The notes beneath the pieces are model-generated. The model made no database searches. It had not been told where the DNA came from and worked only from the letters and a program-made list of their open reading frames with translations. Source: an uncultured Methanosarcinales archaeon (GTDB lineage Archaea > Nanobdellota > Nanobdellia > Woesearchaeales > GW2011-AR9). From it: 38,549 nt of DNA. Made by a program: the position numbers and the translations under genes. Below are positions 7,470 through 29,754 of this stretch, piece by piece (position 1 is the stretch's first letter; each line of letters starts with the position of its first letter). The stretch covers positions 1 to 38,549 of the forward strand of contig CAYIBV010000001.1 in assembly GCA_964361725.1 (NCBI GenBank), written 5' to 3'.

Positions 7470-8784
7470 GAGCTAATTTCTTCACCACATTCTTCACCGT
7501 CAGCAACTGCTCCGTTCCCGTGCTCATATCCCGCAATAATACTTTTTTCTTCTTTAATTCATTTTCTCCCAACATAATCACATAGGGAATCTTCAACGCA
7601 CTGGCATATTCCAAATTCTTGGAAACCCCTTTTCCCAAAGCAAAATCTGTGCAGATTCCCGCTTCCCGCAACTCCTGCGCCACTATAAGACTTTCTTTGA
7701 CTGTATTAATAGGAAGAACTAAGACCATACTAGGTGTCTTTCGCTCCCCTGTCTTTTTCTCTTTCAACGCTTCTGCAATGGGCACTAACCCAAAAGAAAC
7801 CCCCACTGCCGGAACGACTCTTCCCCCGCCCATGAAACTGCCGATCATGTTATCCCATCTTCCCCCTGAACCAAGAGATGAAGTAATCGTTCCTTTTTTC
7901 ATAAATACTTCAAATACCGCTCCGGTATAATACGCCAATCCCCGCGCTAACGACACATCAAACACCGCGGAAGTGACGCCGAATAATTTCAAATATCCAA
8001 ACAACTCTTCTAATTCCGCAATGCCCTGCTTTCCTTCTTCATTTGTCAACTTTTGTTTCAGTTCTGTGAGTGTAATGCCCTCTTTGATCAACGAAAGAAT
8101 ATCTTTAACTTGTTTCGTACTGCACCCTCGTTGCTCTAATTCTTTACTCACACCTTCTTTGCCAATTTTGTCTAATTTATCAATGGCCACAATTGCTTTT
8201 TCTTTATCCTGCACGCCCGCTTGGGCTAAAATGCCATTAAGTACTTTTCGATTATTTACTTTGATAATAACAGGCAATCCTAACTGCACAAATACGCGCT
8301 CAAACAGATTTAATAATTCCGCTTCCGCAAGTAGTGAACTGCTGCCCACCACATCCGCATCACACTGCCAGAATTGCCGCACACGACCTGCTTTAATCGG
8401 CCCATCGCGGAACACGATGCCCATTTCATAGCGCTTGAACGGCATCTTTAAATTAGGATTCATCGCCACGTATCTGGCCAAAGGAACGGTTAAATCAAAT
8501 CGTAATCCTAACTCCCTATCTCCCTGATCTTTTAATTTGAACATTTCTTTCAAGGCATCAGACGCTTCACCCGCCGCAAATTTCGCTGCGAGCGTTTCGT
8601 ACCGTTCTAAAATAGGAGTTTCCAAAGGCGCAAAGCCCGAGAGTTCAAACACCTTGCGGATAGTTTCCACTACTTCATTGGTAATGATCTTCTCTTCCGG
8701 CGGGATATCCCGCACCCCTTTGGCAGTTTGCAGTGGCATACTGTTCTTTGGAAGATTCTCTGCGTTTAAAAATGTTGTTCTCAT
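7459..8784 (-). CDS. hisS: histidyl-tRNA synthetase
   Basis: Class II aaRS / HisRS blocks: KGVRD, LRFDLTVPLARY, FRDGPIKAGRVRQFWQCDADVVG, GGRWDNMIG. The ATG at 8784 forms an ATGA overlap with the upstream gene's stop. The track's extension to 8826 is unlikely. Confidence 0.9.
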   Translation of the reverse strand: MRTTFLNAENLPKNSMPLQTAKGVRDIPPEEKIITNEVVETIRKVFELSGFAPLETPILERYETLAAKFAAGEASDALKEMFKLKDQGDRELGLRFDLTVPLARYVAMNPNLKMPFKRYEMGIVFRDGPIKAGRVRQFWQCDADVVGSSSLLAEAELLNLFERVFVQLGLPVIIKVNNRKVLNGILAQAGVQDKEKAIVAIDKLDKIGKEGVSKELEQRGCSTKQVKDILSLIKEGITLTELKQKLTNEEGKQGIAELEELFGYLKLFGVTSAVFDVSLARGLAYYTGAVFEVFMKKGTITSSLGSGGRWDNMIGSFMGGGRVVPAVGVSFGLVPIAEALKEKKTGERKTPSMVLVLPINTVKESLIVAQELREAGICTDFALGKGVSKNLEYASALKIPYVIMLGENELKKKKVLLRDMSTGTEQLLTVKNVVKKLAHEQ

Positions 8785-16659: not shown

Positions 16660-17610
16660 TTAAATTAATATCTCAATAACAGCGACCATTCCCCATCCCA
16701 GAAAACACCCTGCGGCAATAAACGGCATGGCCGGGTAGAATTTTTTTTCCTTGCTGAACCATAATAATACACCCAGCCCCAGCAAGGCAAAGAAAGGAAT
16801 CACCAGCGACTGCCATACCCCTAATTCTTTCATCACCACGCCGGCAAAAATCAACGGAAACCCCATATCTCCCCCTCCCAGAATAGCCGTGCGCAGAACT
16901 GCTGCTTTCGCCGTTTTCTTCGTTCCAGAAGAATGAGAAACAATCGTCGTACTGCTCACCACCACTTTCCCCGCAACATACGGTATTAACAATCCTGCAA
17001 AGACTTTTGCCTCTGCCTGAGCTTTGGCAAGCATCACCATGTGTTTTGACTTCCACACTGCATAGGCATCATAGATGGCGATCAACACTAATAAAATACT
17101 CACTGACCATAATGAAAACAACGGAACAAAAATTGCCGCTAATCCTCCGTACACAAATAATTCTGTCATGTTCTGCACCCAGAAATTCGGGCGAAATACT
17201 TTCCATAACCCCACAACAACCGCAAAGATTCCGGCAAGCCACGACCACATAAAGGCACTTCCTGCTACCGTCAAAGAAACCGCCACCGCCACAAAAAACC
17301 ACGACTTCCATATCCAATCCAGATGATACGTCAATAAGAGCAATAACATTCCCGTTCCCACAATGATCGCCACAATGATCGGAATAAACGACGTCTGTTC
17401 ATCCATGGGCGGTCTCTCGCCGATAGGCAAGTCTTTGAATATTGTCTCTCCCGCCTCAACGCTCTTCACCGGATCGATGTACTTATACACCACACCTAAG
17501 CCGATAAACTGCGCCGCTAAAAACATGCCCAGAAGAACGTACGTGACCATAGGAGTGTGTTTCACCCACTGAGAAAAAGAAGAAGAGTTTATTAAAGTAT
17601 TGACAAGCAC
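16660..17610 (-). CDS. presenilin/signal-peptide-peptidase-type intramembrane aspartyl protease
   Basis: Polytopic protein with LIAIYDAYAVW (YD), ILGGGDMGFPLIF (GxGD) and a PAL-like PAMPF motif. The start is either GTG at 17610 or ATG at 17550. Confidence 0.75.
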   Translation of the reverse strand: MLVNTLINSSSFSQWVKHTPMVTYVLLGMFLAAQFIGLGVVYKYIDPVKSVEAGETIFKDLPIGERPPMDEQTSFIPIIVAIIVGTGMLLLLLTYHLDWIWKSWFFVAVAVSLTVAGSAFMWSWLAGIFAVVVGLWKVFRPNFWVQNMTELFVYGGLAAIFVPLFSLWSVSILLVLIAIYDAYAVWKSKHMVMLAKAQAEAKVFAGLLIPYVAGKVVVSSTTIVSHSSGTKKTAKAAVLRTAILGGGDMGFPLIFAGVVMKELGVWQSLVIPFFALLGLGVLLWFSKEKKFYPAMPFIAAGCFLGWGMVAVIEILI

Positions 17611-17650
17611 TACAACTCATTTATTTAACTACTTTAGAGGAATAAAGTAA

Positions 17651-17665
17651 GAAAAGTTTATAAAG
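17651..17665 (+). promoter_or_regulatory. BRE/TATA promoter
   Basis: GAAAAGTTTATAAAG is centred about 27 nt upstream of the ATG at 17687. Confidence 0.5.
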
Positions 17666-17686
17666 AAGTCTCTTCCCAAACGTCCT

Positions 17687-19081
17687 ATGCATTCAACTTC
17701 CATGTATACACCAGAAACTCTTACGGAAAGAACCAGTGGTCTTACTTCTATACATAGAGATCTGTATGAGACTGTAATGGCCTTGCAAGAACTTGCCGCA
17801 AGAATAGGAGATTCTCCCCTGAATCAGACTGCAGCGTATAATATTCAAACCAAGTTCACGGAATTTGCCGATACATTATCTGGCATAGACCTTCTCGTTG
17901 AAGCGCAACAGAACAAACTTGGCTCTTTTCTAGAGTGGGCAGAACTGCTTGACGGAGTGAACCAACCTCTTGCAAAACGAGTGTATTCCATCATAGGAAA
18001 ACGCCTTGACATTCTGTACAAACAACGAGAGGGACTGAGCATACGAATCGCCCAACTCACCACGCTTGGAGAGGATACCATCGCTCTTGCCGCACCCTCA
18101 GAAGGGCAAACATCTACACCATATGCAGAATTGCTGGAAGATATGACTGCAGAAGAACAAGCTCTTTCCACTGTCAGGGAATGGTTTAAAGAAGGAACAG
18201 ACTATTTGAATACAGTTTTCAACCATGTAACAGCTGTTCGTGAACCGCCTGAAGAAAGATCTGACAGAGATTATGGTCTATTAATGACAGAGGCACACGA
18301 TGCCCTTAGCGACCTTCTTCACCGGCGAGAGGAAGCAAAAACATCTCAGGCAGCGGCAGAGGCGGCAGTGCGGGAAGCAGAACGGCGCGCGGGAGAAGCA
18401 GACGCACGGGCAGCAGAAGCAAATTTGTTGTACGAAACAGCAAATGACGAACGAACTACGGCAGTAGCACGTGCCGGCACACTGGAAGCAGACCTCCATG
18501 CCGCAGAAGGAAGAGTGGAAGAAGCAACTAGATTATATTCTGAAAGAGGGCAACAATATAAGGAGATAGAAGAACAACAATCGGCAGTCCTTGCCCGGGC
18601 AGAAACTGCCGAGAGATTTGATAGGGATTTCGCCATAGAAGTAGAAAGATTACGAAGCGAGTCTGGTCTCAACACAGGCACCATTACTGCTCTTCAAGAA
18701 GAACGTGATGAATTACGAGGGCGTGTTGACGCCGTAGAACGGGAACTAACAGATTATAAAGCATCAGAACAGGGTATGACCGCAGCAGAAGAAGAGAATG
18801 CCCGCCTCCATCAGGAAGCAGAAACACGAGAAGCAGAATTACGACAAGCCTATCGCACGGTAGAAGCAGAACAAGAAAGATATAGACTACTACAATCCTC
18901 CGTTGCCGTCACAGAAGCACGGGCAGCAGAACTTGCCACTGGACTAGACACATATCAATATTTATATGAAGATCGAGACCTGGCACTCCAACAACTTCGG
19001 GAACGTCATGGTCGAGTGCTGTCCGGTCTTGAAGCCGCGGGAATTCCTCTGGAAGAAATCATTGCACGAGCCAAGAAATAA
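17687..19081 (+). CDS. long coiled-coil protein, Glu/Ala/Arg-rich (group A, copy 1)
   Basis: 464 aa. The C-terminal roughly 270 aa are heptad-like charged helix (AEAAVREAERRAGEADARAAEA...). No enzymatic motif was seen. Confidence 0.6.
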   Translation: MHSTSMYTPETLTERTSGLTSIHRDLYETVMALQELAARIGDSPLNQTAAYNIQTKFTEFADTLSGIDLLVEAQQNKLGSFLEWAELLDGVNQPLAKRVYSIIGKRLDILYKQREGLSIRIAQLTTLGEDTIALAAPSEGQTSTPYAELLEDMTAEEQALSTVREWFKEGTDYLNTVFNHVTAVREPPEERSDRDYGLLMTEAHDALSDLLHRREEAKTSQAAAEAAVREAERRAGEADARAAEANLLYETANDERTTAVARAGTLEADLHAAEGRVEEATRLYSERGQQYKEIEEQQSAVLARAETAERFDRDFAIEVERLRSESGLNTGTITALQEERDELRGRVDAVERELTDYKASEQGMTAAEEENARLHQEAETREAELRQAYRTVEAEQERYRLLQSSVAVTEARAAELATGLDTYQYLYEDRDLALQQLRERHGRVLSGLEAAGIPLEEIIARAKK

Positions 19082-19091
19082 ATATTCTACG

Positions 19092-20000
19092 ATGACACAT
19101 GATGACCTCTGGCGCGAATGGACACGAAAAGGCATCGATGCATTGGCCGTATTTGATGTAGATCCTCATGATTATTATACGTTCACTACTGCTCTTCTCC
19201 ATCCTGATACTCTCCCCGATGATTTCCTTCGCTGGATGGGAACACAAGACCAAAAACTCAAAGAGAACCTTAAAGGGGAATATCGCAACCTGTCCCGAGA
19301 ATTCCATCCCGATATGTTACAAAGATTTTCTTCGGAACTGATAGGCCAAGCCACAAAAGTCTTTACTAACGTAACAACAGTATATGAAGTTCTCATTGAT
19401 CCTCAACGGTACGAAGTCATACCACACGACACAGTACCACCAACATCTCCTATGATGGAATACGTGCAGAGTTTACACGCTACCGGCTTGCGCATTCGCG
19501 ACCACCCCGCGCGGCGTGATGTGGAATTAATGCTGGCAAAAAAAAACATGACTCTTGAACTTCGTACTATCACTGATCCCACTCCCGCTACACAACAACA
19601 ACCTTTCCCTTCACCAGACAGAGAGAGAGATCAACGAGAAGCTGCTGAGGCACGTGCTGCTGCTGACGCGGCAAGAGCACAAGCAGAAGATTATAAAACA
19701 CGATGGCAACGATGCTCCAGCATTCTTTCCCAATATGAAATTCTCGGCAGCCCGGAGGAAGTCATTCGCCTTCCTAAACTTATAGAACAACTACGGGAAA
19801 TGGGCACTCTTCGCGCTGCTTTGCAACAAGTACAAACTGAACTGGATGCAGTACAACTTCAGGCAGAAGAGCGAGAAGCAGCCATTGCCTTATTCGCAGA
19901 ACTCACCAGTGGAAGAACAAGAACACCCCCCTACGGTTTTTTCTCTAGTGATCCAGAACAAGCGGCAATCCGGCTGAGAGCTATTCTTAAAAGAGTCTAG
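19092..20000 (+). CDS. J-domain protein with C-terminal coiled coil (group B, copy 1)
   Basis: ATG at 19092, 10 nt after the upstream stop. LKGEYRNLSREFHPDMLQRF...TKVFTNVTTVYEVLIDPQRYE matches J-domain helices II-III, including HPD (19305-19313). The C-terminus contains YEILGSPEEV followed by coiled coil. Confidence 0.6.
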   Translation: MTHDDLWREWTRKGIDALAVFDVDPHDYYTFTTALLHPDTLPDDFLRWMGTQDQKLKENLKGEYRNLSREFHPDMLQRFSSELIGQATKVFTNVTTVYEVLIDPQRYEVIPHDTVPPTSPMMEYVQSLHATGLRIRDHPARRDVELMLAKKNMTLELRTITDPTPATQQQPFPSPDRERDQREAAEARAAADAARAQAEDYKTRWQRCSSILSQYEILGSPEEVIRLPKLIEQLREMGTLRAALQQVQTELDAVQLQAEEREAAIALFAELTSGRTRTPPYGFFSSDPEQAAIRLRAILKRV

Positions 20001-20022
20001 TAAGATTATGATAAAAATGCGT

Positions 20023-20060
20023 GAAACAAAAAATGAAATCGCAGTTTCATTTTTTGTTTC
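20023..20060. terminator. 16-bp perfect stem-loop
   Basis: GAAACAAAAAATGAAA-TCGCAG-TTTCATTTTTTGTTTC, 23 nt after the stop of the 19092-20000 gene. Confidence 0.45.
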
Positions 20061-20082
20061 TTAACTACACATTTTTAGCACA

Positions 20083-20138
20083 AGAAATACGAAAAATATC
20101 GTATTTCTGTGCAGAAATAAGATTGTTATCTTATTTCT
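20083..20138. other. two adjacent 10-bp stem-loops sharing the AGAAATA arm
   Basis: AGAAATACGA/TCGTATTTCT (20083-20108) and AGAAATAAGA/TCTTATTTCT (20113-20138). Confidence 0.4.
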
Positions 20139-20145
20139 TGCATGC

Positions 20146-20194
20146 AAAAAATTTCGCACTGAAGGGCGGGGTTTTACACCCTGCGAAATTTTTT
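20146..20194. repeat. stem-loop element family, copy B
   Basis: 13-bp stem AAAAAATTTCGCA/TGCGAAATTTTTT. The loop is CTGAAGGGCGGGGTTTTACACCC. It lies 18 nt from the herA stop. Confidence 0.6.
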
Positions 20195-20211
20195 CGCATA
20201 AAATCCTACGA

Positions 20212-21768
20212 TTATCCAAATCCCACATACTGTTGCTCTACTTTTTTGTTTTCCACATCTTTCTTCACAAATTCCGAAAACAACGGCACTTTGATAGGAA
20301 CAGCAAACCGCGTAAACGTCGATGTCACGATCGCTTCTCCTTTATCGAGGGCAGCAATATTCCTGCTGTCCTGGCTCAAATCCTGGGGGGAAGATTCCAT
20401 CACCGCCTGCCGTTCTGTATTCATTTCTAATCCCAAAATTATTTTTGTATTCATGTTCGCTAAAATATTCTTTGGAATTTCTGAAGGCAGCTGGGTGATG
20501 GCAAACAATCCTACCTGAAATTTCCGTCCTTCTCGAGCAATGCTTTCAAACACATTACTGCCCTGCTCCAACACTTTTGCCCCTAACACCCGGGGAGCTT
20601 CTTCTAACACAATGGAAACAACGGGTTTCTCTTCCAGCTTCCCTTGTTTCTTATAGTGCCTATATCGCTCAAAGATCTCTGAGGCAATCATGCTCCCCAC
20701 CAAAATCTCCAATGCTCCGGAGAAATAACTCGTGTCCATGATAACAATCTTCCCCTGCTCTAAAAACCGGCAGATATCAGAAATCGTATTTTCACCGGCC
20801 ACGACATCAAACAATCCCTCGCTGCTCATGCGCCCCTGCTCTACCTCTAACCCCAACAACGAAATGAGTTTTCTTTTCACCACTGCAATAGTATCTTCAT
20901 GAAATAACACTCCCTCGATGCGCTGTTCTTCCACAATGGCGGAAATCCACTCCTCTTTAAATTTCCGATGATAGGCATACAAACACTGCCGCTGCGGATC
21001 TGATAACGCTATTGCTCCCTGAAAATGTTCCGGCTTTAGTTTTTTCAGATGGATTTTCAGAGTAAATGCCCCTGGTGGGGGAGCGATAGGAGTGTAATAT
21101 TTTATGGTATCACCACGAGGATGATCTTTTAACCCCAATCCTGTCCGTCCATAATATTCATCATGAGGATCTAACACCAGCATTCCTGCATATTCCTGAT
21201 GCGCGATATTCCACAAAATGCAGGACATCAAATTACTTTTTCCCTTCCCTGTGGACGCGGGAATCAACACATGATGGCGCAACACTTCTTTTCCCGGAAC
21301 AAAGATATCCATATCCATTTCCCGGCTTCCGCTGCGTAACTTCCCTAAGAACAACGGCATCTTCGGTGTCGTAATAAATGAAAGATCTTCTTTCTCAATT
21401 TCCCGCACTTTAGAAAAAAACGGAGGAAGTTTCTTGCACGTCACACTCCCCTTTCCTACAGTCAGGACGGGCTTAAGCAGCGCTAACTGATACGTGCGTA
21501 ATCGCTCATCCAAAAGAGAAACATCTCCTTCTTCTAAATTCATTCCTGCCACCATCTCTAAATTTTGGGGAGAAATTTGGCTGCCATACACTAAGTCATA
21601 CACTTGCAGGATAAACTTCTCCCCATTCTGTTCAATAACCACTAATTCTCCCAGCTCCACGTTTTCGGAAGACTTAATGCGCATCACGATCTTCCCGAAA
21701 TCTCCTGCAACGACCTGTCCTTTGATCATGCCTGCAACGGCATATCTCACCTTTTTAAGAATTTGCAT
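20212..21768 (-). CDS. herA: HerA-type (DUF87/FtsK-HerA superfamily) ATPase
   Basis: N-terminal barrel-like segment. Walker A is [11 protein letters not shown]. Walker B is [30 protein letters not shown] is typical of HerA. Confidence 0.75.
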
Positions 21769-21836
21769 GCTTCACGCCCACAATCTCCTCTTCGTCCAAT
21801 TTAATTTATTTACTACTTTAAAGAAATAAAAGTACC

Positions 21837-21850
21837 AAAAAGTTTATAAA
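21837..21850 (+). promoter_or_regulatory. BRE/TATA promoter
   Basis: AAAAAGTTTATAAA lies about 30 nt upstream of the ATG at 21876. Confidence 0.5.
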
Positions 21851-21875
21851 TGAGCGTTTATTTTGCCCTGATACA

Positions 21876-23006
21876 ATGGACACTTTACCGAACCCTTTAT
21901 CAATGGCAATTGAACAATACCAAAGACGAGCATTGCAATCCAGCATGGATTATCAGGCATTATCAACCCAACCAGACGATGCTTCTTCCACTCTTCCCCT
22001 TGACCATTACAGGACACGATTCCAAGAAGCAGTAGAAAGCACTCTCACAGAATTGAAATATTGTACGGCCGTCCTTCAGGATGCCAGCAACGGTCAACAT
22101 GCTGATCTTTTGCAAGGCGAATTTGCTGATGAAGAATCACCTCTGCATATTGCAATTAAAGATACGCTCCATACCGCGAAGCAAAGATATGAGCACTTAG
22201 CATCAGTTCAGGGAGTGGTATCAGATCTCGCTTCCGGAACTGCCCCGGCAGCTGTGCGGGAACAGACTTTAGGAGGATACATTGCGAGTATTACTGGAGA
22301 ACGAGACAGCGCACGGGATAATTTCGACACTCTTAATGTATTATATCATTCCATTGTTCCTTCAGAGAGTACTCCTGATCCCGAGGGAGAACGTCGTGCT
22401 GTAGGAGAATTAGAAAGAGCAACCGGATCTGTGGAAGAAGGAGTCTCAGATTTGGTACGAAGATATCAGGGTTTACAAAGAGAATTAGCAGAATTGCAAG
22501 GAACATTAGCACAATCACGCCAAGAATATGAAACTCTGGAAAGAATACATGGAGAGACAGAAGATGAACTTTCTGGAAAGAAAAGCGACTTAGAAACTGC
22601 TCTGGAACGAGAACATTCCTTGCAAAAGCAACTTGCCGACGTAGAGACAAGTTATACAACCCTCAACGGAGATTATGATACATTACATGGTGTTCATAGC
22701 AGCCTTACTGATATGCATACACAGTTAACGGCAGTGCAGGGGCAGTTACGAAGAGAACACGATACTTTACAGGGAGATTACCGTCAACAATCAGCAGACT
22801 ATGTGTTGGAACAGGCGCGAACACAATCTTTAGAGCAACAGCTTGCTGCCGCCGAACAGCGCATTACAAGGATGACCGAGCAACAAGCTGTTCTGCGAAG
22901 TACGAACACCAAATTGCTGGAAAAGAAACTGGCCGCCGAGCGCGCCAGAGCAGCACAAGCAGCATCTATTGCCAACATCTTGGATAATATTCCTCAAAAG
23001 GGATAA
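21876..23006 (+). CDS. long coiled-coil protein (group A, copy 2)
   Basis: 376 aa. The C-terminal roughly 200 aa are charged heptad-like helix (LQRELAELQGTLAQSRQEYETLERIHGETEDEL...). It has the same position and orientation relative to its partner as 17687-19081. Confidence 0.6.
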   Translation: MDTLPNPLSMAIEQYQRRALQSSMDYQALSTQPDDASSTLPLDHYRTRFQEAVESTLTELKYCTAVLQDASNGQHADLLQGEFADEESPLHIAIKDTLHTAKQRYEHLASVQGVVSDLASGTAPAAVREQTLGGYIASITGERDSARDNFDTLNVLYHSIVPSESTPDPEGERRAVGELERATGSVEEGVSDLVRRYQGLQRELAELQGTLAQSRQEYETLERIHGETEDELSGKKSDLETALEREHSLQKQLADVETSYTTLNGDYDTLHGVHSSLTDMHTQLTAVQGQLRREHDTLQGDYRQQSADYVLEQARTQSLEQQLAAAEQRITRMTEQQAVLRSTNTKLLEKKLAAERARAAQAASIANILDNIPQKG

Positions 23007-23079
23007 TTATCCCTCCCTCAAAAATACTTGCCTACAAAAAATGGTGTACTGTGAATGAAGATGAACACACTACCACAAC

Positions 23080-24366
23080 ATGACTCAGTTAATCACTGTC
23101 CAGACTGCACGCGTCAATTTATTACAAGTTTTCGATCTTGATGCTACTCAGTACTTTCTGCCAGAAACCTCTTCTTTTCGTTCTGTTGAAGATGCAGCAC
23201 AGGGGACATACAAGCAGGAAACAGAACGATTTCTGAGAGATATCACTGCCCAATATCATGGCCTTCGCGCTGTGTTAAGTCCTCAGGCCAATGAATCTTT
23301 CCCTGCATCAGTACAACAAGAAGCGGCGGATCTTCTGCATCAGGTGGAAATAGCATACAAAGTATTAACAGACAGAAGAAATCTTGATGTAGTATTTGAA
23401 CCCCATCAAAAGTCCTATTCTTTTCTTTTAGCATGGTATGTACAAGAACTCAGAGAGACGCCGGCAGAATGGAGATCCCCAGCGTTATGCAGAAAACTGA
23501 CCATATACTTTGAAAAAAGATCACTGGTAGAAGAAGTGCACCGTGCTGCTTCAAAGAGTGATGATTCACCACAGCCAGCACAGCCCGCACATGCAGAGTC
23601 CATAAATCCACAAAGCCATGATTCTCTTGTAGAAGAATTACAGAGTGCACTCCACCATCAGGCACTCCAGACAGAAAGAAATGGAGGCTACCTGCAAGGT
23701 CTTATTGACAGTCAGGAAGTACGATATATGTTTCACCATGCTCTCGAAACCAGCCTTCGAAAAGGAAGAGGACAAGAAGTATCTATTCAATTTCTTCAAG
23801 ACTCTTTTCTTCGCCAGCGGAAGGAAATCAATCGCATTCGAGAAGAAGAACAACAAGTGAGAACACAATTAGACGCCTATCGTGCTTTGGGAACACCTGC
23901 TTCTATTCAGGAACGCGTTCAAGAACAACAAGCACGCCTCGTAGAACTACTACAACAAAAACGTGAATGGAGTGCCCGGTTTGCCGCAGCAGAAAGAACA
24001 GCCGCCAGTACTAACGCAGAATTACAACAGCTGCGGGGAGATCGGGAACTTCTCAGAAAATATCGTGCATTAGGATCACCAGAAAGCCTCGCGGAAATGA
24101 AACGAGAATATGAACCTCTTCAGGGAGAAATGGAAACTCTTACAGAACGAGTACTGATCGCTGAAGCAATTGCAGAAGAAGCGCAAACGCTGTTATCAGT
24201 AGCGGTACAACGTACTGAACAGGCTGAGTATAAAGAACAATTAATGTTGAAGCTTCGTCCTTCCGGAAGATGGATTCCCCCGGCTGTCGCTCCCCGCGTA
24301 CGGAGCGTTACCAGACAATTACAGGGCATAGATCGATTACTTCGTGCTGTACTGGAAGAAGAATAA
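23080..24366 (+). CDS. degenerate J-like domain protein with coiled coil (group B, copy 2)
   Basis: N-terminal LLQVFDLDATQYF...AQYHGLRAVLSPQAN...VEIAYKVLTDRRN aligns by eye to the J-domain of 19092-20000, but HPD is replaced by SPQ (23278-23286). Two YRALG(T/S)P motifs match YEILGSPE in the paralog. Confidence 0.55.
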   Translation: MTQLITVQTARVNLLQVFDLDATQYFLPETSSFRSVEDAAQGTYKQETERFLRDITAQYHGLRAVLSPQANESFPASVQQEAADLLHQVEIAYKVLTDRRNLDVVFEPHQKSYSFLLAWYVQELRETPAEWRSPALCRKLTIYFEKRSLVEEVHRAASKSDDSPQPAQPAHAESINPQSHDSLVEELQSALHHQALQTERNGGYLQGLIDSQEVRYMFHHALETSLRKGRGQEVSIQFLQDSFLRQRKEINRIREEEQQVRTQLDAYRALGTPASIQERVQEQQARLVELLQQKREWSARFAAAERTAASTNAELQQLRGDRELLRKYRALGSPESLAEMKREYEPLQGEMETLTERVLIAEAIAEEAQTLLSVAVQRTEQAEYKEQLMLKLRPSGRWIPPAVAPRVRSVTRQLQGIDRLLRAVLEEE

Positions 24367-24411
24367 AGTTTTTGAATCATTTCTCAATGGTATAGTACCG
24401 ATTTCTCAGTA

Positions 24412-24426
24412 GAAATATTTATAAAA
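24412..24426 (+). promoter_or_regulatory. BRE/TATA promoter
   Basis: GAAATATTTATAAAA lies about 28 nt upstream of the ATG at 24449. Confidence 0.5.
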
Positions 24427-24448
24427 CAGCCACCTTTTGATATAAACT

Positions 24449-24703
24449 ATGGAGGCTACAGTGTATAGTTTTCGCCGTGGACGGCATACGCAGAATACTA
24501 GGCAGATGATTCTTAAAATAGCTGACTCTGCAGAAGGAGCGCAAAAGTTCATCGGCAAGACCGTTACCTGGACTTCTTCTGCCGGAAATGAAATCAAAGG
24601 GAAAATTTCTGCTCTCCATGGTAGAAATGGATCCGTAAGAGCTTTATTTACCGCTAAAGGACTACCAGGTCAATCATTAGGACAAAAAGTCCGCATTGAG
24701 TAA
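24449..24703 (+). CDS. rpl35ae: ribosomal protein L35Ae
   Basis: 84 aa. SFRRGRHTQNTRQMILKI...GKTVTWTSSAGNEIKGKISALHGRNGSVRALF fits the eL33/L35Ae pattern. Confidence 0.7.
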   Translation: MEATVYSFRRGRHTQNTRQMILKIADSAEGAQKFIGKTVTWTSSAGNEIKGKISALHGRNGSVRALFTAKGLPGQSLGQKVRIE

Positions 24704-24705
24704 GT

Positions 24706-24750
24706 ATAGTGGCGGACATAAATAAGTAAGCATTAATTAGCCGCTACTAT
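24706..24750 (+). terminator. 10-bp stem-loop after L35Ae
   Basis: ATAGTGGCGG pairs with CCGCTACTAT (one G-T). It starts 3 nt after the stop. A second hairpin, GACGCAA/TTGCGTC, lies at 24759-24789. Confidence 0.4.
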
Positions 24751-24933
24751 ATATGAAAGACGCAACTATTTTGCTTAATTATTTGCGTCCTTCAGTATAC
24801 ATACTATCTCTGGAGGCAAAAGCCAAGAGGTGAGTTTGACATTCTACATGGAGTAAATATTTATATACTCTAAGTTTCTTTTCTGACTATATAATAAAGA
24901 GGGAAATTTTCCTCAAAAAGAGTTGGTTTTTGT

Positions 24934-26670
24934 ATGGCGCAAGGACAAGGTGGAGGCACCGCCAAAGTAGTACTAATTATATTTATCTTAGTTATTCTAG
25001 GTTTAGTAGGCTTCCTGGGATACAAACAAGGCTGGTTTACCAAACAAACGTTTACAGACCTGTGGAAGATTCTTCAAGTCAAAGAATTTTGGATCAATGT
25101 AGGCATCCTTGCAGGAATTGGGTTATTCATCGGCTACTTTGTCCCTCCATTTAAAGACACCCTCAGAGGAAAAGGAGACGACAAGATGGCTGCATATATT
25201 CTGCTTTTCCTTATTCTTGCCGGTTCCATTCTCGCCGCATACAAGATGGGAAACCAGCTCCTGTATGATTATCCTTTGATTCATGATTTCTTTTTTGACG
25301 CCCCTGCACCCGGAGGAAACTTCACCTACAATCCTCTCATCAACGTCGCTATCTTTTGGATTTTCATTTGTTTTGTTCTTCCTTGGTATGAACCCATTAA
25401 GAAACTGACACACAGTTCTGGGGGACAGTCTAATACCGCATTTTATACCATAGCCCTCATCATCAGCGTGGTCATCGCCTCCAAACTCGGAGCAGTAGGT
25501 GTTTGGGAGAACCAAACGTTCTTAGATGCTGAACACGTCCTTGTGGGTGAACGAGTAACCGTCGCTGATCCCCTCGGTGGGCATACCGGATCGTATCAAG
25601 CAACAGCGAAAGGAGTAACAAAAACACAATATGGCATTCTCAAATTTGAAGTGACCACAGGAGGGAAAACAGTATATCCTCTTCCCGTTCTCATCATCGT
25701 CTACGTCCTCCTCTCATTAATATTAGCGTACTACGGCGGTCAACTCGCGCAAAGTGGTTTGGGTGTGCTGGGAAAAGGGGGAAAAGATGTTATCTTAATC
25801 ATTTTCGCCGGCATGGCCGCCAACAGCGGCACTGATCTGAGTTCCGTCATCTGGCTGGCATATTTAGGATTCTTCTTCGCCGTAAAAAGCATGCTTGATA
25901 AAGTAAGTGTTATCCAGAATGAAACGTTTAAGAAATATTTTCCCCTGATGGGCGCCTTTGTCGCCGCAGAACTGTTGGCAGATGTTATTAATCCATTAAA
26001 ACCAATGGGACCACCTATCTTTGAAGGGGATCCCATCTACAAAATCGCTATGGGCACACTTTCAGGAATCGTCATTGCTTTCTTCTTAGGTATGGGAAAA
26101 GGAATATTTGGTCATCTCATGAGAACCAAAGGAAAAACTCAACTCTGTAAAAAGTGTCATTCTGTGTGTACAATAGAAGCAGGAGGAAAAACAGTTTGTC
26201 CTACCTGCAGTTACACTTGCCCAAAATGTGGTATGCGCGGTGTGTCGCAGGGAATCAAAATTATCTGCGCTAACCCTACTTGTGAAAGTGCCGGACAAGA
26301 ATTTTCTGTTCCCATCGAAACAGAAGTCATCAGCGGCTTTGAAAGCTGGGGCGTACGTCTCGTAGAAAAAATATCGCCCTCTAAGAGAGCTGCACAAGCT
26401 GCCAATGAAGAAGAACGAAAAAGGGCAGAACAAGCGCTCGCTGATCTCACAACAGCTCGTGGAGGTGCCGAACTCTTAAATCTGCAGACAAACGCAAAAC
26501 GTATCGTACGCCGTATCAAAGGATTACGAACGTTACTCACCTCAGCGAGAGCTGCTGACAAAGTAACCGTAGAATCGCAACTTCAAGCGTTGTTAGACCA
26601 ACTGGAAGATATTAACGCAAAGATCAAAAAGAAAGGTGGAGAGGAAATAAATGAATCTACAGAGGTATAA
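24934..26670 (+). CDS. polytopic membrane protein with C-terminal zinc ribbons and coiled-coil tail
   Basis: About 8-9 hydrophobic segments. These are followed by CKKCHSVCTIEAGGKTVCPTCSYTCPKCGMRGVSQGIKIICANPTCESAG (several CxxC knuckles) and then a charged helical tail. Confidence 0.6.
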   Translation: MAQGQGGGTAKVVLIIFILVILGLVGFLGYKQGWFTKQTFTDLWKILQVKEFWINVGILAGIGLFIGYFVPPFKDTLRGKGDDKMAAYILLFLILAGSILAAYKMGNQLLYDYPLIHDFFFDAPAPGGNFTYNPLINVAIFWIFICFVLPWYEPIKKLTHSSGGQSNTAFYTIALIISVVIASKLGAVGVWENQTFLDAEHVLVGERVTVADPLGGHTGSYQATAKGVTKTQYGILKFEVTTGGKTVYPLPVLIIVYVLLSLILAYYGGQLAQSGLGVLGKGGKDVILIIFAGMAANSGTDLSSVIWLAYLGFFFAVKSMLDKVSVIQNETFKKYFPLMGAFVAAELLADVINPLKPMGPPIFEGDPIYKIAMGTLSGIVIAFFLGMGKGIFGHLMRTKGKTQLCKKCHSVCTIEAGGKTVCPTCSYTCPKCGMRGVSQGIKIICANPTCESAGQEFSVPIETEVISGFESWGVRLVEKISPSKRAAQAANEEERKRAEQALADLTTARGGAELLNLQTNAKRIVRRIKGLRTLLTSARAADKVTVESQLQALLDQLEDINAKIKKKGGEEINESTEV

Positions 26671-26675
26671 AAACC

Positions 26676-26825
26676 ATGAACCGAGCGACTATTAAACAAA
26701 ACGTGGAACAGAACCTTGCTTCCAACAGAGCGTTACTGACTCAACTCAAAGCAGAATTAGGAGAAGATATCTACACCCGTCTCCTTGCTTCCCTTCCAGA
26801 ACAGAAACGGAGGTTCCTGCAATGA
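26676..26825 (+). CDS. small helical protein (49 aa, below the ORF-track cutoff)
   Basis: Translates MNRATIKQNVEQNLASNRALLTQLKAELGEDIYTRLLASLPEQKRRFLQ. GAGGT lies about 9 nt upstream. The stop forms an ATGA overlap with the next gene. Confidence 0.45.
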   Translation: MNRATIKQNVEQNLASNRALLTQLKAELGEDIYTRLLASLPEQKRRFLQ

Positions 26826-27907
26826 CCCTTGACTCTGCAGCGACCAAAGTAGTGAACTTATATGGCTTTCTGGCAGAACTACAAGACAGATTCAACCAAG
26901 ATCCTGATGCCGCATTAAAGTTATTCCTCGACAACAAAGGAACAATCTTGGAAACCCTGAAACATAACGATCGGGTTGCCGCTTTCTTCTTAGAACGAGT
27001 CAATTTCGAAGAAGTAAAGAATTTTCACAACCGTAAAAAAGCCATCCTCACTTTTGCCACAGAAATTCCTTCTCTCACCTCTCCTCAACAATTACAGCAG
27101 CGCACGGAAGCGTTCCTTGCGTTCATCAAAGATGAAGCGTTCACGCAAAAGATTCGTCATCTTCTCGCCGGCATTGCCAAATATCCGGAAGAACTGAAAT
27201 GGATGCAGCAACTGGAAATACAGCTTGCTACGTTAGAACAACAGTGGAATGACCCTAATGCCCATCCCGCAGAACAAACCTCGGCAATGTTCAAAGCATT
27301 ACATACTGAAATCCCCGAACGCCTGCGCACGGAATTTAACGATCCCCCCATGGCTCAATACATTGAAGAGTACCTGAACCATAACGAGGAACACTTCCAG
27401 CCCATTCCCCGTCCCGGGCCATTAAAAGTCCTCCTGATCCGTATCATCGAAGCCCTGCAGAGGCCGGAAATGCAGCAGGGACGATTCGTGCAGGCAAAGA
27501 CCGCACTGCTACAAGAAATAACACGAGAACAGGCAGAATTACAGAAACATCAAGTTAAAGTAATTGACAGTATCAAATCAAACACGCAGCGACTCCTTCA
27601 ACAGTTAGAAGTAGTGATGGGTGATTTGTACGAACAAGCGGCAGCGGAAGGAAACCTTGCCGGGTTATACGTTTCGTTACTTGCCCTCCTTGCCGATAAA
27701 ATCCATATCAACGCCGCCATCCTGCAGGAACTGCAAGTCAACCCCGATGATGCCACTGCAGAACCGCGCGTGGCTTCATATCTGGAACAATATCTTACAT
27801 TGGTAAAAGAAACAGATAAACTGCTTGGCCATATCAAAACCATGGGAAAAGTCGTGGTGAACAGAGAAGAATTAGGAAAGAAGTCATTAAAGAGGATAAA
27901 AGTATAA
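26822..27907 (+). CDS. all-helical soluble protein of unknown function (361 aa)
   Basis: Long ORF coupled by an ATGA overlap to the upstream small ORF. There are no TM segments and no motif I can name. Confidence 0.55.
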   Translation: MTLDSAATKVVNLYGFLAELQDRFNQDPDAALKLFLDNKGTILETLKHNDRVAAFFLERVNFEEVKNFHNRKKAILTFATEIPSLTSPQQLQQRTEAFLAFIKDEAFTQKIRHLLAGIAKYPEELKWMQQLEIQLATLEQQWNDPNAHPAEQTSAMFKALHTEIPERLRTEFNDPPMAQYIEEYLNHNEEHFQPIPRPGPLKVLLIRIIEALQRPEMQQGRFVQAKTALLQEITREQAELQKHQVKVIDSIKSNTQRLLQQLEVVMGDLYEQAAAEGNLAGLYVSLLALLADKIHINAAILQELQVNPDDATAEPRVASYLEQYLTLVKETDKLLGHIKTMGKVVVNREELGKKSLKRIKV

Positions 27908-27948
27908 CTCTACAAAGAAGATAAAAGAAAGTATAACCATAAACAAAC

Positions 27949-29754
27949 ATGAACAAACAAACAATAATGATTTGTATGGTACTTTTTCTGTTAATAGTTC
28001 CCTCTGTCATAGCCGCCCCGTTTGATTTCCTCAACAACATCCGCGTGGGCAGTACGGGCTTTGGGGCTTATGACCGGCATAAAGACATCCTCGATTTTGG
28101 TATCTTCTTTATCTTGTTCTTAGCGGTAACATGGCTCTCCATCCGCTCGTTCTATTCAGAGAAAGAACAACGAAATCCCGCGCTGGCTATTGCCATCGTT
28201 GTAGCGATCGCTTTGGCCATCGCCGCATTAAAAGCAGGATTAAGTCCTTCGTTTGCGGGCCCATTTATGAAATACGTCCTGTTCTTTCTGGGAGTGGTGT
28301 TGCTGTACTTGATATTTGTCAAACTCTTCCACGTGGAAACTGCCGGAGGAAGGATCCTCGTCTTTATTCTCGCTCTTCTCTTGTTATGGCTGTTATTCAA
28401 CCTTGCCAACTTTAGTTTTGAACGATCACGGATCGATCTTCCTAGTGGAGGAGGGGCATGGGAAAAAACCAAAGACTTCTTTCGCGGACTGACAAAAGCC
28501 CCTACGAGGACTATCAGTGTAGAAGGAGAAGAAGAGGGTGAAGAAGTAGAACTGGAAGAAAAGCAAAAAGAAGGGCCGAGTATTGCTGACCAAGCCAGCA
28601 AGAAAGCAAGCGACATCTGGAGTTCTATCACTGGTTTCTTCAAAAAGAAATGCGAATCAGACGCTGAATGCAATGGTGGCAGTTGTAAAGTGAGTACAGA
28701 TGGTAAAACAAAATCATGCGTAGAATGTACGTCTGATACGCAGTGTAAAGACAACAAAGTATGTGACTTAAAAGAAAATGAATGTGTTGAAGGGACTCAA
28801 GAGAAAACAGAAGAAACGAAACTAGAGGAAGAAGAAAAATGTACCACCAATGAAGACTGTTCTTCCGACCAGTATTGTGATACTGCTACGAAAATATGTG
28901 TGGTCAATACCATAACTAAAACTGGATGTACCACAGATAATGAATGTAGTGATACAGAAACATGTGATACCGCAACAAAGACATGTGTGCCAATACCTGC
29001 CGCTCCCACTAAAAAAGAATGTACTACCTCTCGTGAATGCCCTCCAGAAAAACCAGCTTGTAATTCTGGTGAGTGCATGGAAGGTGAGTGTGGTACAGAG
29101 TTAATCTGTCTTCCTGAAAAACCCATTTGTATCTGGGAAAACGCAGAAAAAACAAAAACAACATGTGTTCAGTGTATAAAAAACGAAAACTGCCCTTCCG
29201 GTTCAATTTGTGATAGTAAAACGTCTACTTGTATCAGTAGTCAGCCAACACAAATTAAACCAGAGGAAATAGAGGGATACACGCTCTATCCCACATTCGA
29301 TTTACGTGGACCAGCCATTTTTACTGCCACCTCTTATGCAGAATGTGCCAGTCAATGTAATGGAATGGATGAATGTGCCGCTTTTGTCTGGGTAAGAACA
29401 GACAATAAATGCTATGGCAAAAACACTAAAATAGTACGAGAAAATATCCCTCAAAATCCAAACACAGATTTGTATAAAAAGCAAACAGGATTCTTTCATT
29501 CTTTAGCCCAGAATGGGGGTACAATTGGTTTAATTGCCGGAGGCGTACTTCTCCTCTTTGTCTTAGTGGTTATAGGACGATCAGTATATAACAGAAGAGC
29601 TGGCGGAAACAGTTCATACAGAAATAAAGCAGAGTTCACGGCAGAACTCCGCACTACACTCCATGATCTTGAACAAGAAGTAGGAAACCACATGACAGAC
29701 CAGTTTGAGCTCTATGACCGGTTCCTCAACAATTTAAAAAGAGGTGGCTCATGA
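27949..29754 (+). CDS. membrane protein with seven 4-Cys repeats, PAN/Apple-like module and C-terminal TM anchor
   Basis: Signal-like N-terminus followed by about 5 TM segments and an acidic linker. Seven C-x5-C-x4-6-C-x4-12-C units lie at 28651-29232. ECASQCNGMDECAAFVWVRTDNKCYGK is PAN/Apple-like. The final TM is followed by the tail RRAGGNSSYRNK. Confidence 0.6.
   Translation: MNKQTIMICMVLFLLIVPSVIAAPFDFLNNIRVGSTGFGAYDRHKDILDFGIFFILFLAVTWLSIRSFYSEKEQRNPALAIAIVVAIALAIAALKAGLSPSFAGPFMKYVLFFLGVVLLYLIFVKLFHVETAGGRILVFILALLLLWLLFNLANFSFERSRIDLPSGGGAWEKTKDFFRGLTKAPTRTISVEGEEEGEEVELEEKQKEGPSIADQASKKASDIWSSITGFFKKKCESDAECNGGSCKVSTDGKTKSCVECTSDTQCKDNKVCDLKENECVEGTQEKTEETKLEEEEKCTTNEDCSSDQYCDTATKICVVNTITKTGCTTDNECSDTETCDTATKTCVPIPAAPTKKECTTSRECPPEKPACNSGECMEGECGTELICLPEKPICIWENAEKTKTTCVQCIKNENCPSGSICDSKTSTCISSQPTQIKPEEIEGYTLYPTFDLRGPAIFTATSYAECASQCNGMDECAAFVWVRTDNKCYGKNTKIVRENIPQNPNTDLYKKQTGFFHSLAQNGGTIGLIAGGVLLLFVLVVIGRSVYNRRAGGNSSYRNKAEFTAELRTTLHDLEQEVGNHMTDQFELYDRFLNNLKRGGS

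Follow-up and report, generated by a model that had tools for sequence, protein, structure and literature searches.

Here we describe a two-gene unit that occurs twice in a 38,549-nucleotide (nt) stretch of DNA from a small DPANN archaeon of Nanoarchaeota/Woesearchaeota type (hereafter the window; the complete contig CAYIBV010000001.1 of GenBank assembly GCA_964361725.1, positions 1 to 38,549), its copies A1-B1 and A2-B2 standing on either side of an inverted gene for a HerA-type ATPase. The first gene of each unit (A) encodes a helical protein with a long coiled coil, and the second (B) a protein derived from J-domain co-chaperones. The explanation that we favour, with a confidence somewhat above even, is that A and B form an operon for a coiled-coil scaffold and a J-domain or J-like protein, with HerA as a bystander; the window would hold two anciently diverged copies of this rare, lineage-restricted operon, placed in the variable junctions that flank HerA. 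We regard the A-B pair as a functional unit because the adjacency of its genes survives extreme divergence, a promoter element is conserved and a composition is shared. An earlier reading of the same DNA (the original prediction) had seen in the two pairs a mirrored duplication and in their products possible adaptors of HerA; the four plus-strand open reading frames (ORFs) and the minus-strand DUF87/HerA gene between them on which it was built are all present (Table 1).

The second gene of each pair is J-domain-derived. The earlier description of both as J-domain-like holds by profile and HPD motif for B1, which passes the Pfam DnaJ model (PF00226; 31.7 bits against a gathering cut-off of 27.8, E 1.6e-7), is matched by several NCBIfam DnaJ models over residues 44-110 and has a J region at amino acids (aa) 55-108 with the HPD motif at aa 72-74 (nt 19305-19313), whereas B2 gives no match to Pfam DnaJ at E <=1 and carries, within a J-like region at aa 49-103, LSPQ (aa 66-69) where HPD is expected, S-P-Q aligning to HPD. 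B1 has neither a glycine/phenylalanine (G/F) region nor a zinc finger; its J region is followed by the family motif SPMMEYVQSL (aa 119-128) and by a coiled coil that carries YEILGSP (aa 215-221, nt 19734-19754). In B2 the corresponding family motif, SFLLAWYVQEL, precedes a coiled coil, and the protein has YRALGTP at aa 267-273 (nt 23878-23898) and YRALGSP at aa 328-334 (nt 24061-24081). The Y-x-x-L-G-(S/T)-P motif that had been pointed out in these proteins is thus found once in B1 and twice in B2, and it forms a conserved column of the B family. As for the supposed duplication, B1 and B2 are indeed distant homologues, related through their non-coiled N-terminal 150 residues (BLASTP E 7e-5 and the family hidden Markov model (HMM); N-domain identity 19%), but between A1 and A2 no homology is detectable (BLASTP E 4.2).

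When a B-family profile (B1, two close relatives and B2) was compared with the PDB, 31 of 31 matches were J-domain chains. In the AlphaFold2 (AF2) model of B1 (predicted local distance difference test score, pLDDT, 68.6), helices II and III lie at aa 42-70 and 81-101 (pLDDT 80-91) and a C-terminal helical hairpin follows; a Foldseek search of the PDB with this model returned nothing at E <=0.001, only generic helical and coiled-coil matches. When 1.84 billion representatives were searched exhaustively by HMMER for sequences fitting the B profile, 39 matched at E <=1e-3, of which about a dozen clusters constitute the true B family, the rest being generic J-domains or motif-only matches. Full B-type proteins share an N-terminal extension, a J or J-like core, a post-J (S/T)xPLxxYxxxLQ motif, a coiled coil and YxxLG(S/T), and they occur in only a few lineages of DPANN archaea (Woesearchaeota/Nanoarchaeota). 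Of 13 members 6 retain HPD, and the relatives P0129, P0130 and P0133 score 33-34 bits against Pfam DnaJ. B-bearing genomes usually combine one HPD copy with HPD-less copies. Single-sequence searches proved too insensitive for this family: phmmer with A1, A2, B1, B2 and the Escherichia coli J-domain against the ORFs of 87 HerA loci matched only L006 and L007, and it was the profile search that then revealed the divergent family. As a separate observation, Y-x-x-L-G-(S/T)-P-E-E recurs as a tandem repeat of ~30 residues in the unrelated proteins P0131, P0134, P0139 and P0148, and in P0134 a phage head-maturation protease is joined to a tail resembling a scaffold. From this the motif has the look of a helix-break-helix cap in general use among helical-hairpin repeats.

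That the two-gene unit is repeated, as originally proposed, is borne out both by the window and by several other lineages. A gene for a long helical or coiled-coil protein precedes a B gene on the same strand, at a distance of 0-73 nt, twice in the window, once in locus L006, twice in L089, once in L090 and on the P0126 contig. Closest to the window are L006 (GCA_053533955.1; HerA 90% and thermosome 93% identical) and L097 (HerA 92% identical). The former has, in order, the gene for a signal-peptide peptidase (SPP), an A1-like gene, a B1-like gene, HerA and the gene for ribosomal protein L35Ae, whose promoter is conserved beside HerA; its A1 orthologue is only 42-47% identical to A1. In the latter a B1-like gene overlaps the 3' end of HerA and an unrelated gene lies 5' of HerA. 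Because neither of these closest relatives has A2-B2, and because L35Ae directly adjoins HerA in most relatives, A2-B2 is an insertion, peculiar to the lineage of the window; the only database matches to this pair are fragments of the same organism.

More distant loci retain the order of the unit. L089 carries SPP on the minus strand, an A-like gene of 434 aa, a B-like gene of 596 aa, an A-like gene of 356 aa and a B-like gene of 310 aa, that is, two tandem A-B pairs, with no HerA between or after them. L090 carries SPP on the minus strand, a coiled-coil gene of 431 aa, a B-like gene and then unrelated genes, with no adjacent HerA; the B-like gene (L090 7782-8768, GCA_053531095.1) is split into pieces of 56 and 255 aa by a frameshift or pseudogenisation or by an assembly error. 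Outside the window, SPP is the gene found most regularly beside A-B pairs. B2 is closer to the two L089 proteins (L089_B596, 4e-12; L089_B310, 2e-9) than to B1 and the B tree is star-like with long branches, and for these reasons we take the two pairs in the window to be ancient paralogues, not the product of a recent duplication. A second flavour of cluster surrounds HerA-L35Ae in L091 (4518-9002) and L094 (1082-4115 and 7807-8902), where coiled-coil or TPR genes lie between SPP and HerA and, past L35Ae, two or three B-like genes come first, then a coiled-coil gene and then a TPR gene; its members include a 450-aa DnaJ+TPR protein, short B-like proteins and coiled-coil proteins with a conserved TPR-like tail (...PHxHYFxATxYE...AGNGSSxKAG...).

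The A genes are also linked by their promoters, although not in the way first supposed. The 13-mer AAAAGTTTATAAA does stand, exact, 5' of both A genes, as had been claimed for a common promoter, but it has 13 matches with <=2 mismatches across the window, and since copies with 1-2 mismatches precede many other genes it is the generic archaeal consensus of B-recognition element (BRE) and TATA box. What is specific is a 19-nt element, ACTACTTTARAGRAATAAA, found in the window only at the two A promoters (2 hits against 0.10 expected), which points to A-B units that share their origin, their regulator or both. This ACTAC-N6-GGAATAA-like element sits 6-8 nt 5' of the BRE/TATA (window 17628-17646 and 21812-21830), is recognisable 5' of the A genes in L006 (~8440-8460) and L089 (~2495-2520) and partly so in L090 and L094, and is a candidate regulator-binding site. 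The A1 mRNA is probably leaderless or short-leader. Composition sets the same genes apart: all four A and B genes are lysine-poor (K 2.4-3.3%), with R/(K+R) of 0.72-0.80 against a median of ~0.4 in other genes, and their third-position GC content (GC3) of 0.31-0.36 is under the 0.43-0.54 of their immediate neighbours. The bias for arginine over lysine appears to be lineage-specific, the L089 homologues being lysine-rich as judged by eye rather than by counting.

Comparison of the window with L006 indicates how fast these genes change. The nonsynonymous divergence (dN) of A1 is 0.47 and that of B1 0.31, against 0.017-0.084 for thermosome, LacB, X285, HerA and L35Ae, so that A and B exceed these flanking genes by a factor of ~4-27. 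Their ratios of nonsynonymous to synonymous divergence (dN/dS; A1 0.25, B1 0.15) are the highest in the region and still <1; synonymous divergence (dS) itself is near saturation in this comparison (0.4-2.5, NG86), which leaves only dN and dN/dS <1 as usable measures. The ORFs of A and B are intact in several lineages, and A1 and B1 are real genes evolving very fast under net purifying selection, not decaying ORFs. Across SPP, A1 and B1 together (window 16660-20000, L006 7478-10918; SPP 71% identical) dS stands at 1.9-2.5 compared with 0.4-1.3 in the flanks, and this stretch may be a recombined or exchanged segment, with the reservation that NG86 values are near saturation here.

No family could be assigned to the A proteins themselves. 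A single-sequence AF2 model of A1 (pLDDT 76) consists of four helices at aa 9-183 and an antiparallel coiled-coil hairpin (aa 188-325 and 330-450, pLDDT 90-96); Foldseek of this model against the PDB gave nothing at E <=0.001 beyond generic helical and coiled-coil matches, and a PDB sequence search with the N-terminal parts of the A proteins gave no match. What family models such as those of SMC and Rad50 match in A1 and A2 is in every case coiled coil, and the scores are far under the cut-offs (for SMC and Rad50, 17-33 bits where 567-1087 are required). The predicted hairpin of A1 recalls the arms of SMC and Rad50, but the A proteins have no ABC ATPase head, hinge or zinc hook, and an SMC or Rad50 identity was rejected, the resemblance being compositional. 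Neither pair HMMs nor hhalign of the N-terminal parts connected A1 with A2, the former giving no signal and the latter results equal to reversed-sequence controls; because no signal rose above controls, we speak of A1 and A2 as having the same architecture and not as homologues. What they have in common is that architecture, a site 5' of a B gene, the composition and the specific promoter element. The sole detectable relative of A2 is L089_A356 (E 6e-5 to 8e-5, N-terminal residues included), and no match to the joined sequences of A2 and B2 came from a word-indexed search.

The gene between the pairs has a clear identity. Its product matches PF01935 (DUF87) at 77.1 bits (cut-off 23.2), its Walker A sequence STGKGKSN is invariant in the homologue alignment and its closest solved relative is Sulfolobus HerA (4d2i, E 3e-23), while NCBIfam HerA equivalogs score 80-97 bits against cut-offs of 800-970 and the PADLOC HerA subfamilies likewise remain far under cut-off. 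Translation probably starts at M14 (21729, 505 aa), which we prefer because all homologues begin there. With more than 3,000 homologues, the best 120 clusters of which are 70-92% identical (more than 100 of them 70-78%) and, where named, from Woesearchaeota/Nanoarchaeota, it behaves as a highly conserved, housekeeping-type gene. The original prediction was right that HerA lacks its usual partners here: NurA, Mre11 and Rad50 families of Pfam are missing from the scanned window ORFs of >=150 aa, no partner gene is adjacent, and the gene tables obtained for related loci do not list them in their precomputed Pfam annotation either, so a HerA-NurA or HerA-Mre11-Rad50 repair module was rejected. HerA-NurA and the defence pairs HerA-Sir2 and HerA-DUF4297 share with the window a DUF87/HerA-type ATPase, but the window HerA has no NurA, Mre11, Rad50, Sir2 or DUF4297 partner; the genes that keep a conserved place beside it are L35Ae and SPP.

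Among the HerA loci L001-L088, L35Ae occurs in 27, mostly adjacent and divergent, and SPP in 17. In ~80 metagenomic HerA loci sampled without bias (~35 with >=2.5 kb on both sides), the family HMM found no B-like ORF. Loci L003-L005 (HerA 77% identical) share the backbone of the window, L35Ae-HerA-SPP-...-metallo-beta-lactamase-thermosome-CDP-OH transferase-HisRS, with HerA directly between L35Ae and SPP and neither A nor B. The junctions beside HerA vary from 30 bp to 2.2 kb among relatives, and their cargo (L009-L029) comprises VapBC-type PIN/RHH pairs, a Fic protein, a HAD hydrolase, two or three tandem oxygenase-like paralogues and a TrmB-like regulator; in L091 a VapBC pair lies between HerA and L35Ae (2062-2699). 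The L35Ae-HerA and HerA-SPP junctions are accessory-gene hotspots. A and B genes are never co-directional with HerA and never in its transcription unit, and the comparison as a whole suggests that HerA is a positional bystander, not a partner of A and B. The one locus that a contig search by the HerA sequence alone brought up, L008, is an unrelated one from Thermotogaceae.

Several results count against an operon of scaffold and J protein with HerA as bystander. The A-B interaction is deduced from adjacency only, and homology between A1 and A2 is not demonstrable by BLASTP, pair HMMs or hhalign. The fold support for B1 is weak, its best J-domain match in Foldseek being DnaJ 4j7z at rank 3 (E 1.9, probability 0.44, model pLDDT 68.6). 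Both B copies of L089 are HPD-less, so that recruitment of Hsp70 cannot be a universal activity of the B family. No DnaK was found in a scan that covered the 38.5-kb contig; none was found in 883 kb of retrieved loci either, which are gene flanks only and hence uninformative. Speaking for an available Hsp70, all three of DnaK, DnaJ and GrpE are encoded by many DPANN archaea (PMC8204110). Finally, B genes lie within 3 kb of HerA in 4-5 of 7 B-bearing lineages. This frequent proximity is, however, expected from shared synteny, since all B-bearing lineages are closely related and form one clade with HerA 73-100% identical, and the reciprocal test fails because HerA almost never has B.

Under the operon reading, A would consist of an N-terminal helical bundle and an antiparallel coiled-coil hairpin ~130 residues long, and B would combine an extended J-domain with a coiled coil and with Y-x-x-L-G-(S/T)-P as a conserved helix break. 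B1, having kept a complete J-domain with HPD, would act as a class-C-type co-chaperone that brings the cell's Hsp70 (DnaK) to a specific substrate and activates it there. The most plausible substrate would be the coiled-coil protein whose gene lies upstream, or an assembly built by that protein, and the coiled coil of B1 would dock on it. B2, its HPD lost, would be unable to stimulate Hsp70 and may instead serve as a J-like structural or regulatory partner of A2. The physical interaction of A and B, the dependence on Hsp70 and the cellular role are what we infer here. The fallback offered in the original prediction, an unrelated chaperone-linked cytoskeletal set, comes close to this account and fits better than the idea centred on HerA.

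The main alternative, possible though unlikely, is that A and B are fast-evolving accessory genes of a conflict or host-interaction module, lodged in a hotspot and active in virus defence or at the symbiont-host interface, with the J or J-like domain manipulating the archaeon's own Hsp70 or that of its host. Their extreme divergence relative to the neighbours, their patchy distribution among close relatives, the paralogue arrays with loss of HPD and the VapBC, Fic, HAD and other cargo carried by the same junctions in relatives would all be in keeping with such a role, as would the occurrence of Y-x-x-L-G-(S/T)-P-E-E in phage head-protease and scaffold-type proteins. Against this, overall dN/dS is <1, and no signal peptide, transmembrane segment or effector or enzymatic domain was noticed by eye and with Pfam, no dedicated predictor being used. 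PADLOC-DB 2.0 gave no match for A1 or B1, and for A2 and B2 only compositional matches of 12-20 bits to coiled-coil parts of JetC and LmuB, which led us to reject a known anti-phage defence system for these genes. PHROG gave no family match for B2 and only trivial matches for A1, A2 and B1, and scans of IMG/VR contigs with the B1 family and with B2 found no relatives.

The proposal that A and/or B attach to the HerA hexamer and link its motor activity with a substrate or effector, while the J-domain supplies Hsp70, is in our view improbable. It draws on the position of both window pairs around HerA, on the divergence of A2 and HerA from a shared 146-nt region, on B1-type genes that abut or overlap the 3' end of HerA in L006 and L097, and on the J-like, coiled-coil or TPR genes on either side of HerA-L35Ae in L091 and L094. 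Yet the distributions do not agree: more than 3,000 HerA homologues stand against ~12 clusters of the B family, most natural HerA lineages lack A and B, and none of the ~80 HerA-anchored loci has a B-like ORF. The two nearest relatives do without A2-B2, L003-L005 do without either gene on the same backbone, and in L089 and L090 A-B lies beside SPP without HerA; nor do A and B ever share the transcription unit of HerA. The set of all five genes is absent from every other locus examined, an outcome that the original prediction had itself named as its refutation. A literature search for a described system of HerA with J-domain and coiled-coil proteins gave nothing relevant, in agreement with what the original prediction had said.

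Quite improbable, too, is that the pairs are remnants of an integrated virus or mobile element, leftover scaffold-like structural genes inserted on both sides of HerA. A2-B2 does separate HerA from the conserved L35Ae promoter in the manner of an insertion, the composition of the genes differs from that of their flanks, and there is a motif-level similarity to C-terminal repeats of phage scaffold and protease proteins; but no integrase, transposase, terminal repeat or target duplication was found around either pair in a search that did not include a tRNA scan, no viral contig has relatives, the genes are under purifying selection, and the A-B unit with its promoter element is kept at the same chromosomal site across several lineages. 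Identity with phage scaffold or head-maturation proteases was rejected as well, the short Y-x-x-L-G-(S/T)-P-E-E motif being all that is common, with no match to a PHROG scaffold or protease family and none in IMG/VR. That A1 and A2, and B1 and B2, are unrelated low-complexity coiled-coil ORFs and the module an artefact of reading, as the lack of significant similarity between A1 and A2 and the many weak matches inflated by coiled-coil composition might suggest, is extremely improbable and largely refuted by the tandem A-B-A-B order of L089 and the B-family profile, in addition to the homology of B1 and B2 through a non-coiled domain, the promoter element found only at the two A genes and the match of A2 to L089_A356.

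An operon of coiled-coil scaffold and J protein can be set beside several known systems. B1 resembles class C (type III) J-domain proteins, Hsp70 co-chaperones made up of a J-domain and a specialised targeting domain, in having a significant J-domain with HPD, no G/F region or zinc finger and a private C-terminal coiled coil, as a substrate- or site-specific recruiter of Hsp70 would. The B proteins differ from that class in that the J-domain is extended, with an N-terminal W...IDxLxxF helix, an insert of ~25 residues before helix II and the post-J motif, and in that the family occurs in few Woesearchaeota lineages, is about half HPD-less and usually lies 3' of a coiled-coil gene. In the mitochondrial import motor, a J protein (Pam18/Tim14) works with an HPD-less J-like partner (Pam16/Tim16). 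The presence of HPD-bearing B1 and HPD-less B2 in one genome, and of both kinds in L091 and L094, is reminiscent of that pair, but the sequence relation is limited to the J fold, the B proteins have no membrane anchors and a B1-B2 heterodimer is hypothetical.

Another analogy is offered by the attachment organelle of Mycoplasma pneumoniae, which is built of coiled-coil cytoskeletal proteins and has a J-domain protein, TopJ (MPN119; PMC4923136). In both cases a dedicated J-domain protein would go with long coiled-coil structural proteins in a small-genome, host-attached organism; homology is confined to the J-domain, however, TopJ is not part of an operon of the A-B type, and a cytoskeletal structure made of A is hypothetical. 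By this analogy the A proteins might build a lineage-specific coiled-coil cytoskeletal or attachment structure in some of the Woesearchaeota, each A served by its own J or J-like co-chaperone, where an HPD-bearing B would drive Hsp70-dependent assembly or turnover and an HPD-less B would be a brake or a structural subunit, making the whole an archaeal counterpart of the Mycoplasma terminal organelle with TopJ. We consider this extension of the operon reading rather unlikely.

Table 1. Features of the window around the two A-B pairs.
Feature	Positions	Strand	Description
SPP (presenilin-type) gene	16660-17610	-	signal-peptide peptidase; divergent from A1
A1 promoter	17628-17664	+	upstream element ACTACTTTAGAGGAATAAA, then BRE/TATA AAAAGTTTATAAA, ~22 nt before ATG
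A1	17687-19081	+	464 aa, all-helical, without family assignment
B1	19092-20000	+	302 aa, extended J-domain protein, starts 10 nt past A1
Convergent B1/HerA spacer	20001-20211	no strand	four hairpins in a row
HerA-like DUF87 ATPase	20212-21729	-	505 aa from M14; longest ORF extends to 21768
A2 promoter	21812-21850	+	upstream element ACTACTTTAAAGAAATAAA, then AAAAGTTTATAAA, ~25 nt before ATG
A2	21876-23006	+	376 aa, helical N-terminal part and coiled coil at ~aa 175-370
B2	23080-24366	+	428 aa, J-like paralogue without HPD
L35Ae gene	24449-24703	+	ribosomal protein; context gene

The surroundings of the pairs are those of an ordinary chromosome, with genes for thermosome, HisRS, CDP-alcohol phosphatidyltransferase, S3Ae, L35Ae, Cbf5/TruB and SPP. 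The spacer between the convergent B1 and HerA genes is 211 nt long and folds into four consecutive near-perfect hairpins (minimum free energy -74.7 kcal/mol, z -10.2 against shuffles); it has no second copy within the window, an Rfam scan of 17000-25000 gave no match, and it is missing from L006 and L097, whose B1 and HerA genes have an overlap of 4 nt. Lying outside the protein module, it probably represents bidirectional terminators or a small inserted element, and could be a bidirectional terminator array, a small non-coding RNA or an insertion resembling a miniature inverted-repeat transposable element. Further downstream, 3' of L35Ae (24934-29754), three genes are conserved with L006 at 61-82% identity. 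The first encodes a 578-aa multi-pass membrane protein with zinc-ribbon-like CxxC motifs and a coiled-coil tail, and the other two a helical protein of 361 aa and a Cys-rich PAN-domain surface protein of 601 aa.

With these results, a system of HerA, J-domain and coiled-coil proteins drops off the list of candidates as unsupported, and the hotspot nature of the L35Ae-HerA-SPP junctions helps to judge other "associations" found there. What is left is a J-domain protein of a new and rare kind that goes together with a coiled-coil partner. It comes from DPANN archaea, a group in which next to nothing is known of cell biology or of the structures that contact a host. Should B1 indeed bring DnaK to a coiled-coil scaffold, it would rank among the first client-specific Hsp70 co-chaperones proposed for DPANN; and if the A proteins do build an attachment structure, the speed at which A and B diverge together would be a mark of adaptation at the symbiont-host interface.

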